From positions 1-40,582 of IMG/VR virus record IMGVR_UViG_2778261692_000003: a stretch of 40,582 nucleotides of DNA. One strand, given 5' to 3'. Positions 32,223-33,737 of the stretch are shown here, piece by piece. The notes beneath the pieces are model-generated. The model made no database searches. It saw only the letters and a list, made by a program, of their open reading frames with translations, and was not told where the DNA came from. The DNA is from a virus. Taxonomy: Duplodnaviria > Heunggongvirae > Uroviricota > Caudoviricetes. The translations under genes and the position numbers were made by a program. Each line of letters opens with the position of its first letter. Within the stretch, counting starts at the first letter, position 1.

Positions 32223-32585
32223 ATGGGTCAGGAAGAAAAATATGAGCTTAAAAAGCTCATTGAAGAAGACGCCATAGAAGAAATTGCAGCATTAACAACA
32301 GCTATAAAGAATATTAGGTATGCGCTAAATACGCTTATCTCCTCATGCGACAAAAATAGCAGGGAATTTTTGATACTTGGCGCAGCTCTAGGAATAGTTG
32401 ATGCGGCAACGCTTCACCTAATTACTCATGACAATATTCTTATTGAGCCGTATGAAACATTACTGCTTGTCAGGCAAAAAATGGCTGATGCCGCAGCAAA
32501 TGGAGACCTTCAACTTTACATCGACTTAAGGAAAGTATTAAGGCGAATGGTCAGAACTGAAGGAGATATCCCCCTGACAAAATAA
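32223..32585 (+). CDS. Hypothetical helical protein (120 aa), first gene after N
   Basis: ATG 32223 with GAGG RBS; AT-rich; no recognised motif. Confidence 0.5.
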   Translation: MGQEEKYELKKLIEEDAIEEIAALTTAIKNIRYALNTLISSCDKNSREFLILGAALGIVDAATLHLITHDNILIEPYETLLLVRQKMADAAANGDLQLYIDLRKVLRRMVRTEGDIPLTK

Positions 32586-32765
32586 GGGGGTGAGAGGATT
32601 TTACTATTTTCCTCGCTGTAGGGGTACACGAGAACCACCGAGCCTGATGTGGTTAAAAGACAGGCACAATCTTTACTACCGCAAGCCACGCAGTGAAATG
32701 GGTGTGACTTGTGTTGGTCGCCAGAAAATGAAATTAGGCAGCAAACCACTTATTTGAGGTGATAT

Positions 32766-33188
32766 ATGGAAGAACAAGCAAACAAGATTCTCGTAGAACT
32801 ACTGCAAAAAGCCAGCAATGGAATAGACGCGGCTGTTTCATTTAGCCAGGCACAGATTCCTGATGTTGTTCATCAGTTGCTAATATGGAGTTTTGTCCAT
32901 AGCGCACTTTCCCAAGTGACTGGGTTGTTGCTTTTAATTGCAGCAATAAAACTTCCTAGTTTTGCAAGAACGGCAAGAAATAATGGCGAGAGATGGACGT
33001 CTTTCGATGGATGTCCAAATGATGGATATTTTATATCTTCGTTTTATTACGATATATGCACCGTATTTGCTCCTGTATTTGGCTCAATTATTGGCGTTTC
33101 AATTATCGCCTTCAATTTCGAATGGTTGAAGATTTGGCTTGCACCTAAGTTATTCCTAATTGAATATGCAGCATCATTGGTTAAGTAA
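32766..33188 (+). CDS. Hypothetical two-TM membrane protein (140 aa)
   Basis: Two hydrophobic segments (LLIWSFVHSALSQVTGLLLLIAAI; FAPVFGSIIGVSIIAFNF); GAGG RBS; AT-rich. Confidence 0.55.
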   Translation: MEEQANKILVELLQKASNGIDAAVSFSQAQIPDVVHQLLIWSFVHSALSQVTGLLLLIAAIKLPSFARTARNNGERWTSFDGCPNDGYFISSFYYDICTVFAPVFGSIIGVSIIAFNFEWLKIWLAPKLFLIEYAASLVK

Positions 33189-33192
33189 TTTC

Positions 33193-33218
33193 AGGCCGCA
33201 TAGTCGGCCTTTATTTTT
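33193..33218 (+). terminator. Rho-independent terminator after the 2-TM gene
   Basis: AGGCCG-CATAGT-CGGCCT followed by TTATTTTT. Confidence 0.7.
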
Positions 33219-33266
33219 GGCATAAACAAGAGAATAAACACCGCACTGAATTATTTGAGGTGAGAT

Positions 33267-33737
33267 ATGACAAAATCATGGAGCGTACCTTTTCCTGAAT
33301 CAGAAACTGAACATGATGGAATGCCTGTTTTCTGGAGATTCCAGGCGACAGTTGAAGAAGATGGAATCAAAATATTCGCACTTCAATATATAGCTTTTCA
33401 TCAGACAGAGCATTATGCATGGTTGGTTCCTGCGCATTGGATTGTTAATTTTAAACCAACACCAAATCAGTGGTTACAGGAATGGAAACAAAGGAGAAAT
33501 AGATATGCAATTAAGAAAGTAGCAAAAAATGCAGAAAGATCTTTTGCATTCCCGACGAAGAAACTTGCCATTGAAAGTTTATTGCGCCGGAAGAAATACC
33601 ATTTAATGAGAATCAAACAAGATTTGGCTGTTGTATCAACTCTTGTTGATGGGATGAAGAATATTGATACATCAACACCAGATATTGAATATAACTTTGG
33701 ACACAACCAAGAAACAGAAAACTGGGTGTTTTATTAG
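33267..33737 (+). CDS. Hypothetical basic protein (156 aa)
   Basis: GAGG RBS; Trp/His-rich N-terminal half, Lys/Arg-rich centre; AT-rich. Confidence 0.55.
   Translation: MTKSWSVPFPESETEHDGMPVFWRFQATVEEDGIKIFALQYIAFHQTEHYAWLVPAHWIVNFKPTPNQWLQEWKQRRNRYAIKKVAKNAERSFAFPTKKLAIESLLRRKKYHLMRIKQDLAVVSTLVDGMKNIDTSTPDIEYNFGHNQETENWVFY

Follow-up and report, generated by a model that had tools for sequence, protein, structure and literature searches.

Do the three AT-rich genes that follow the antiterminator gene N in a lambdoid prophage form one functional system, or are they unrelated genes that happen to lie side by side? We asked this of positions 32223–33737 of the virus record IMGVR_UViG_2778261692_000003, which was analysed over its full length of 40,582 nt (hereafter, the window) and which is a P22-like prophage. 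The original prediction held that the three genes, here called P1, P2 and P3, were undescribed and together made up one exclusion/defence or anti-defence module, possibly expressed in the prophage. We favour instead, with modest confidence, the view that they are accessory modules of the lambdoid PL operon, each a single gene unrelated to the other two, which mosaic recombination has joined and which do not constitute a functional system.

The coding content of the block was as first described. We confirmed to the nucleotide the three + strand open reading frames (ORFs) of 120, 140 and 156 amino acids directly downstream of N. A Shine–Dalgarno site precedes each of them, as had been proposed; the ribosome-binding site (RBS) of P1 is a GAGG 5 nt before the ATG, within the last codons of N, and those of P2 and P3 are GAGGTGA ahead of each ATG. 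The AT-richness was also evident: the GC contents of P1, P2 and P3 are 39.4, 38.8 and 36.3%, whereas the window averages 46.9% and N has 50.2%, and just 4.7% of same-length segments are as AT-rich as the 1,515-bp block. Two hydrophobic segments agree with the description of P2 as a protein with two transmembrane helices, and P3 is indeed basic and Trp/His-rich, with an isoelectric point (pI) of 9.1, 7 Trp and 6 His. P1, P2 and P3 are real coding genes under purifying selection, because the ratios of nonsynonymous to synonymous substitution rates (dN/dS) are well below 1 and the homologues are full-length. We obtained a dN/dS of ∼0.16 for P1 against a 63%-identical homologue and of 0.34–0.50 for P2; for P3, the nonsynonymous proportion (pN) was 0.21–0.24 and the synonymous one (pS) was saturated.

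The three genes, however, do not behave as the unit that had been proposed; their distributions and their mosaic breakpoints are separate. The trio occurs in at most one of 5,426 complete Escherichia coli genomes and in none of 160 viral contigs (80 with P3 and 80 with P2-family genes). The sole genome in which the three-gene stretch was covered to at least 80% carries a different, 149-amino-acid allele of P2, and no phage record covered at least 80% of 31900–34300. Taken singly, P1 was found in 95 of the 5,426 genomes, P3 in 593 (∼11%, with at most four copies per genome) and this allele of P2 (≥80%) in 60, and the ends of P2 were matched in 478 E. coli genomes. In the 80 P3 contigs the usual order was N–P3–(ea10, gp17 or nothing)–cIII, with P3 directly after N in most of them and with five types of N; ahead of P3 we observed P1 in 2, a P2-family gene in 3 and both in none. 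The 80 P2-family contigs displayed 22 architectures, for example N–P2, N–ral–P2, N–sieB(−)–P2 and N–P2–P3, and P1 was present in none.

From blastn comparison with nine related loci, we observed sharp joints at 32139/32140, 32587–32597, 32750–32768 and 33251–33269. At the second of these, window positions 31900–32597 correspond to 1501–2199 and window positions 32587–32768 to 2733–2914 of loci L006, L008 and L009, and the ∼530 bp with hkaP are missing. In Stx1a_10051, ETEC1730 and MBT-5 this joint is occupied by hkaP, a gene of 164 amino acids on the opposite strand, annotated in HK620 as 'putative superinfection exclusion' and absent from the window. The third and fourth joints coincide with two copies of a 19-nt direct repeat, which overlap the RBS and start of P2 and of P3. 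The sequence between them (32769–33250, 482 bp) contains the P2 ORF and a terminator-like site, and corresponds to 2383–2874 of the CUS-3 locus (L004). In HK97, H-19B and 611R6, the repeat (TTATTTGAGGTGAnATATG) is present as a single copy directly before gp45, the counterpart of P3, so that P2 is an insertion at the gp45 RBS junction. Compared with its commonest relatives (N–hkaQ–[hkaP, opposite strand]–gp45), the window has lost hkaP and has gained the P2 module, ORF plus terminator, as a 482-bp insertion between the RBS-bearing repeats.

The trio is therefore a chance juxtaposition of separately mobile, catalogued genes, that is, ordinary lambdoid mosaicism. The genes could not be called undescribed either, as they are 94–99% identical to catalogued ORFs of HK620, CUS-3, HK97, H-19B and 933W. 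The window contains nothing that is in itself new; all three genes are already catalogued and functionally uncharacterised. Literature searches by gene name, accession and PHROG identifier returned no functional study of P1, P2 or P3; papers on Stx phage regulation and on a 'bully phage' were irrelevant to them. Most early-left genes are of unknown function (phage L genome paper, PMC8022706).

P3 matches the phrog_1636 profile over its full length (E = 1e-111, residues 1–156 of 156). It is 98.7% identical to HK97 gp45, and identity is 98.7–99.4% across HK97, H-19B, 933W and phi24B. The protein corresponds to 933W NP_049479 and to an unannotated ORF of H-19B, and the gene is found in phi24B, BP-4795, Min27 and many phages carrying Shiga toxin (Stx) 1 or 2; the records of the family are all named 'hypothetical protein' or 'prophage protein'. 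In HK97, 933W and H-19B it occupies the same place in the PL operon as P3, usually first after N, and has the same terminator region downstream. The window differs from the HK97 gp45 context in that the P2 module and hkaQ intervene between N and P3, and is otherwise without substantial difference.

The close family of P3 comprises 33 unnamed clusters, which come exclusively from Enterobacterales, and has 40 invariant columns. A profile search of 1.84 billion representatives extended it to a superfamily of 87 proteins at E ≤ 1e-3, and the relationship was reciprocal. Its members are mostly single-domain proteins of 130–160 amino acids with ∼20% identity, among which A101 is the sole invariant residue and G33, T47 and K87 are the sole near-invariant ones. 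Since the invariant residues are few and none is enzyme-like, P3 is more likely to be a binding protein than an enzyme. A Pfam scan of 73 superfamily members and of the longer matches P0184, P0205 and P0176 revealed no informative domain or fusion. The AlphaFold2 model obtained from a 73-sequence alignment had a predicted local distance difference test score (pLDDT) of 95.4 and a predicted template-modelling score (pTM) of 0.82. It is an alpha/beta structure with four strands (19–30, 33–46, 50–55 and 83–86), short helices and one 33-residue helix (98–130), around which lies a K/R-rich region. This model superseded an earlier one from 22 close homologues, which had a pLDDT of 63.6 and gave meaningless Foldseek matches. 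Foldseek found no analogue of the later model in the Protein Data Bank (PDB; best E = 1.1). Against BFVD it returned 13 matches with template-modelling scores of 0.44–0.64, all uncharacterised and from diverse phages, among them Achromobacter phiAxp-3, Delftia RG-2014, Erwinia phiEa2809 and Rhizobium, Cellulophaga and Tenacibaculum phages. Judged from these models, P3 is a member of a predicted fold family that is restricted to phages.

We also noted that a P3 homologue adjoins xis–int in Pectobacterium and Brenneria prophages and that one relative lies beside a 'DNA binding protein' gene, few loci having been sampled for such distant relatives. The idea that P3 is P22 gp17 was discarded; in H-19B the two genes are neighbours, and a blastp comparison of P3 with gp17 gave E = 4.4. 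Ten nucleotides past the P3 stop there is a + strand stem-loop (33747–33784) with 17-bp arms and without a T-run, which could be an RNA processing/stability element or a Rho-related site. The segment 33747–33865 shares 96.6% identity with CUS-3 (L004); for the segment downstream of P3, identity to HK97 and H-19B is 98%.

P1 matches phrog_7374 over its full length (E = 6.5e-79, residues 1–120 of 120) and is an acidic protein (pI 5.2) with ∼98% identity to HkaQ of HK620 and HK630, whose function is listed as 'unknown'; the search gave 97.8% over residues 30–120 and left residues 1–29 unaligned. The family is narrow, with 5 protein clusters among 5.8 billion, from E. coli and E. albertii, and 7 phage records. 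In all seven loci examined, including that of a 63%-identical homologue, the start of P1 lies 2 nt past the stop of the same type of N; in HK620 and HK630 it is the same 90-amino-acid N, at the same spacing, as in the window. We place the start at 32223, and not at the upstream ATG of the 148-amino-acid gene calls, because this is also where the 63%-identical homologue begins. The 2-nt spacing suggests that P1 is probably translationally coupled to N. What follows P1 differs from HK620, where hkaQ is succeeded by the opposite-strand hkaP that is deleted here.

Homologues of HkaQ in RefSeq (loci L007–L009) carry the label 'antitermination N domain protein' from the Prokaryotic Genome Annotation Pipeline (PGAP), and gene callers vary between 120, 130, 148 and 158 amino acids. 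P1 had no match to N families in Pfam or NCBIfam, and blastp to five N proteins gave no similarity; on these comparisons, the label looks like a misnomer derived from the position beside N. An N–P1 fusion by frameshifting was considered, and was dropped when the end of N, read by eye, displayed no slippery heptamer. The metagenome contigs that carry the 63%-identical homologue (L027–L029) have two N-type genes in one early-left operon: a PF25694 N_peptide gene upstream of the homologue and a PF26859 Phage_N_antitermin gene ∼1 kb downstream of it, with a weak GhoS-like ORF on the opposite strand between the two.

P2 is a member of phrog_3054 (E = 5.9e-52 over residues 1–140, full length) and is 93.6% identical to ECRS218_0047 of CUS-3. 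The whole 482-bp module with its terminator is common to both phages; it follows hkaQ in the window and ral in CUS-3. Other records of this group are named 'Gene 34 protein' or 'phage transmembrane protein'. The family is made up of 479 clusters, with homologues in Vibrio phages, N4-like Salmonella phages and rV5-like or ∼145-kb virulent coliphages, where they are always in early or DNA-metabolism regions. The N- and C-terminal motifs are common to the Vibrio, N4-like and rV5-like members. Mean pairwise identity is 0.80 for residues 1–45 and 0.89 for residues 118–140 (NFDWLKIWLAPKLYLIEYAASLVK), and only 0.19 for the middle. This hypervariable part comprises both hydrophobic helices and a loop of 8–59 amino acids, and its length varies between alleles; other phrog_3054 alleles have the same termini as P2 and an unrelated transmembrane hairpin between them. 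At the DNA level, the ends of P2 are 96–97% identical to strain 19AR1724, whereas the middle has no blastn match, and mosaic joints of the family fall within the gene itself. This middle might determine specificity, or it might serve just as an anchor that can be exchanged freely. The K+R counts (2.4 in the N-tail, 5.0 in the loop and 3.0 in the C-tail) are ambiguous for topology.

A moron, in the sense used for HK97 and HK022, is an extra gene of atypical composition, with its own promoter and terminator, inserted between two genes. P2 resembles morons in being inserted between otherwise adjacent sequences, in its GC content (0.39), in the predicted terminator of its own inside the module and in the flanking direct repeats. 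It differs in the promoter: a weak consensus scan found no sigma-70-like site (≥9/12 matches) upstream of P2, which suggests that P2 depends on PL and is not expressed autonomously in the prophage.

Next, we compared the three proteins with known exclusion and defence functions. The interval had rightly been recognised as an accessory slot; it is the hypervariable N–cIII slot, which in lambda and P22 holds sieB, ral, ea10 or gene 17. It had also been said that none of the three proteins has an assignable motif, and we likewise obtained no match for any of them in Pfam (E ≤ 0.1), NCBIfam or PDB sequences; single-sequence PDB searches with P1, P2 and P3 gave noise only, and the P2- and P3-family profiles gave nothing against PDB sequences. 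P1, P2 and P3 are unrelated in sequence to Ral and SieB. None matched the Ral family PF11058 (66 amino acids) at E ≤ 0.1, for which the CUS-3 Ral control scored 4.3e-48, and blastp against lambda and P22 Ral gave no alignment at E ≤ 10. Against lambda and P22 SieB, P1 and P2 gave no blastp alignment and P3 only one at E = 2.6 (lambda SieB). No match was obtained to P22 gp17 (PF17420; H-19B gp17 control, 3.6e-52), the gene for which is absent from the window, and there was no resemblance to lambda/P22 Ea10, RexB, SieA, orf78 or orf87. In PADLOC-DB v2 the sole match was P3 to Cas1_II (E = 0.016, 12.5 bits), which is noise. P1–P3 share with lambda/P22 SieB/Esc, Ral, Ea10 and gp17 the genomic slot and the mosaic behaviour, and with the last three also a predicted early expression in the PL sense, but have no sequence relationship to any of them.

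The layout of transcription signals bears on when the genes would be expressed. P1, P2 and P3 are all sense to PL. In contrast, sieB of lambda and P22 and hkaP of HK620 run in the opposite direction, and a promoter of its own is annotated for P22 sieB. Our promoter scan, a crude consensus search, detected no sigma-70-like site (≥9/12 matches) ahead of P2 or P3, and the region had fewer promoter-like sites than expected from shuffled sequence. For a defence or exclusion module expressed in the prophage we thus have no positive evidence, neither a PADLOC match nor a promoter-like site before P2 or P3. The terminators said to bracket the cassette exist as + strand hairpins at 33193–33210 and 33842–33859, all terminators here being predictions by scan; the former, however, lies between P2 and P3. 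It is within the segment shared with CUS-3 and moves together with the P2 module. The scan found no + strand terminator-like site from N up to 33193, so that 33193 is the first such site downstream of PL/N. The hairpins at 33842–33899 correspond to tL2A/tL2B as annotated in HK620 (window 33738–33955 aligns with 2813–3029 of the HK620 locus, L002).

Following the lambda paradigm, P1–P3 would be transcribed from PL only after infection or induction, and would be silent in the repressed prophage. P1 and P2, upstream of the 33193 site, would be immediate-early and N-independent; P3, between this site and tL2A/B, would need N antitermination. Such timing favours accessory roles in the lytic phase over a prophage-expressed defence. 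Each protein would act alone, early in lytic growth, and would bind a component of the host or of the phage instead of catalysing a reaction; its role would be in host takeover, in counter-defence or in exclusion by the infected cell. In this scheme P1 would be small and acidic, P2 a small inner-membrane protein whose function resides in the conserved termini, and P3 a basic, non-enzymatic alpha/beta protein. The P2 family and the P3 fold are also present in virulent phages, N4-like and rV5-like ones included, which indicates that they are not specific to lysogeny. Early binding factors that act alone appear to us the most likely description, which we hold with low confidence; the only grounds for the host-takeover or counter-defence part of it are where the genes lie, when they would be expressed and an analogy with Ral, Kil, cIII and Abc2.

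Several points weigh against this picture of unrelated, lone-acting genes. Neither experiment nor homology ties P1, P2 or P3 to a function. The terminators are predicted only, and the promoter scan is crude, so weak or activator-dependent lysogen promoters may exist. P2 sits in the exact place of hkaP/sieB and has a hypervariable middle, which also fits a specificity determinant of exclusion. The constant position of P1, 2 nt after one type of N in seven loci, could mean a functional link to N.

That the three genes make up one exclusion/defence or anti-defence module, as originally predicted, now seems very improbable, and this view is largely refuted by the co-occurrence data. The genes are adjacent, co-oriented and AT-rich, with an RBS on each, and they occupy the sieB/ral/gene 17 slot of lambda and P22 with no competing known function; yet the trio is virtually never found together, its genes have separate mosaic breakpoints, no PADLOC match or internal promoter-like site supports it, and the hairpin at 33193 splits it. 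Nor are the ORFs remnants without function, or frames that arose by chance in an AT-rich junk interval from N to cIII. The lack of annotated function, the atypical composition and the mosaic surroundings might invite such a view, but its probability is negligible and the conservation data already refute it: all three genes are under purifying selection with a strong RBS on each, full-length homologues extend down to 27–60% identity, and the P3 fold is modelled at a pLDDT of 95. A role of one or more of the genes in phage development, P1 modulating N antitermination or P3 being a nucleic-acid-binding regulator or a recombination/excision accessory, appears rather doubtful. P1 does follow one type of N at 2 nt in 7/7 loci and bears the PGAP N-domain name, and P3 is basic (pI 9.1) with a K/R-rich helix region and lies first after N in most contigs, or beside xis–int or a 'DNA binding protein'. 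However, P1 has neither a match to N families in Pfam or NCBIfam nor similarity to N; HK97 and H-19B have this C-terminus of N but no P1, and most lambdoid phages lack P1, which is in only 7 phage records. P3 pairs with five types of N and is dispensable in many relatives, and no DNA-binding fold was detected in it.

P2 by itself could also be a superinfection-exclusion or immunity protein, made very early, that blocks DNA entry or aborts secondary infection, with the swapped transmembrane middle setting the specificity. T4 Imm, P22 SieA and HK97 gp15 are small early membrane proteins of exclusion. By functional analogy only, P2 is like them in being small, with a two-helix anchor, predicted to be early and present in virulent as well as temperate phages; it has no homology to them, and its conserved parts are the soluble termini and not the membrane part. 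This reading accounts for the two hydrophobic helices, for the predicted immediate-early position upstream of the first terminator-like site, for the fact that P2 takes the place, at one and the same joint, of hkaP with its annotation 'putative superinfection exclusion', for ends that are 80–89% identical around a middle of 19% with mosaic joints inside the gene, and for the presence of the family in virulent phages, which are known to have early exclusion genes. We nevertheless regard it as quite unlikely. P2 has no sequence similarity to SieA, SieB or RexB and no Pfam or PADLOC match; some alleles have a loop of 8 amino acids, so the middle may be a mere membrane anchor, and the K+R counts are ambiguous for its topology. 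Moreover, the P2 family coexists with an opposite-strand sieB in 5 of the 80 contigs, which indicates that P2 is not simply an alternative to, or substitute for, SieB.

The view of three separate accessory modules clears a false lead, in that the apparent AT-rich module is a normal lambdoid N–cIII juxtaposition. There is a small chance that P3 acts early to inhibit a host function or a defence against phages, a role not recognised so far, or, separately, that P2 is an Imm-like exclusion protein in which a swappable transmembrane hairpin sets the specificity; either, if true, would be a new functional family and not a three-gene system. The gp45 family of P3 is a useful experimental target, as it abounds in E. 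coli prophages, Stx prophages among them, and has a confidently predicted fold without a solved analogue. So is phrog_3054, with its unusual pattern of conserved ends and replaced middle across temperate and virulent phages. If a function were found for P3 or P2, hundreds to thousands of genes in prophages would thereby be annotated.

Table 1. Coordinates of P1–P3 and of other features of the window
Feature	Position	Strand	Basis or remark
Integrase	1–1158		
O-antigen acyltransferase, Acyl_transf_3	1356–2489	+	
Tailspike with P22 head-binding domain	2512–4365	−	
cI	30439–31176		
98-amino-acid ORF	31217–31513	+	phrog_18389
Bidirectional terminator	31518–31537		
PL promoter (TTGACC-17-TATCTT), overlapping OL operators	31725–31753	+	Promoter scan and HK620 alignment
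N antiterminator, 90 amino acids	31948–32220	+	Pfam PF25694 N_peptide, E = 1.6e-14; phrog_271
P1, 120 amino acids	32223–32585	+	
Joint where relatives carry hkaP	32587–32597		blastn
Left copy of 19-nt direct repeat TTATTTGAGGTGATATATG, RBS and P2 start	32750–32768	+	Repeat search
P2, 140 amino acids	32766–33188	+	
Terminator-like hairpin and T-run	33193–33218	+	6-bp stem, 5 GC pairs, TTATTTTT tail; terminator scan
Right copy of 19-nt direct repeat, RBS and P3 start	33251–33269	+	95% identical, 501-bp spacing
P3, 156 amino acids	33267–33737	+	
Two tandem terminator-like hairpins	33842–33859, 33880–33899	+	Terminator scan; precede cIII
cIII	33932–34102		phrog_550
Erf	34329–34964		
Abc2	35371–35667		

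The immunity region to the left of the three genes reads rightward as cI, the 98-amino-acid ORF, the bidirectional terminator, PL/OL and N (Table 1). PL maps to the annotated pL of HK620 (L002 1326–1361), the record of which also annotates OL1–3 and nutL; window 31660–32000 is 90% identical to L002 1261–1601, and there is an operator-like inverted repeat at 31708–31754. A mosaic joint lies within N itself, at ∼32139/32140 by blastn. The 5′ two-thirds of N is 97–98% identical to N of CUS-3 and vB_EcoP-611R6 and the 3′ third is of the HK620 type, which travels with hkaQ. Thus, the part with the arginine-rich motif (ARM) and NusA binding and the C-terminal part differ in history. Against Rfam, the full window returned no match. 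An Ead/Ea22 gene lies rightward of the N–cIII interval, and a host lacY-like gene is at the right end of the window.

At the other end, the acyltransferase gene between the integrase and the tailspike lies where the window is most AT-rich (GC ∼0.35) and is of the serotype-conversion type that is typical of P22/Sf6-like prophages. The 98-amino-acid ORF has an N-terminal transmembrane helix and the minimum GC of its region (30.6%), and is also present in the ETEC1730 prophage. Located directly after cI and before the terminator, it is in the rexAB/hkaS position and is therefore probably co-transcribed with the repressor in the lysogen. This ORF is better placed than P1–P3 for a prophage-expressed defence or exclusion function.

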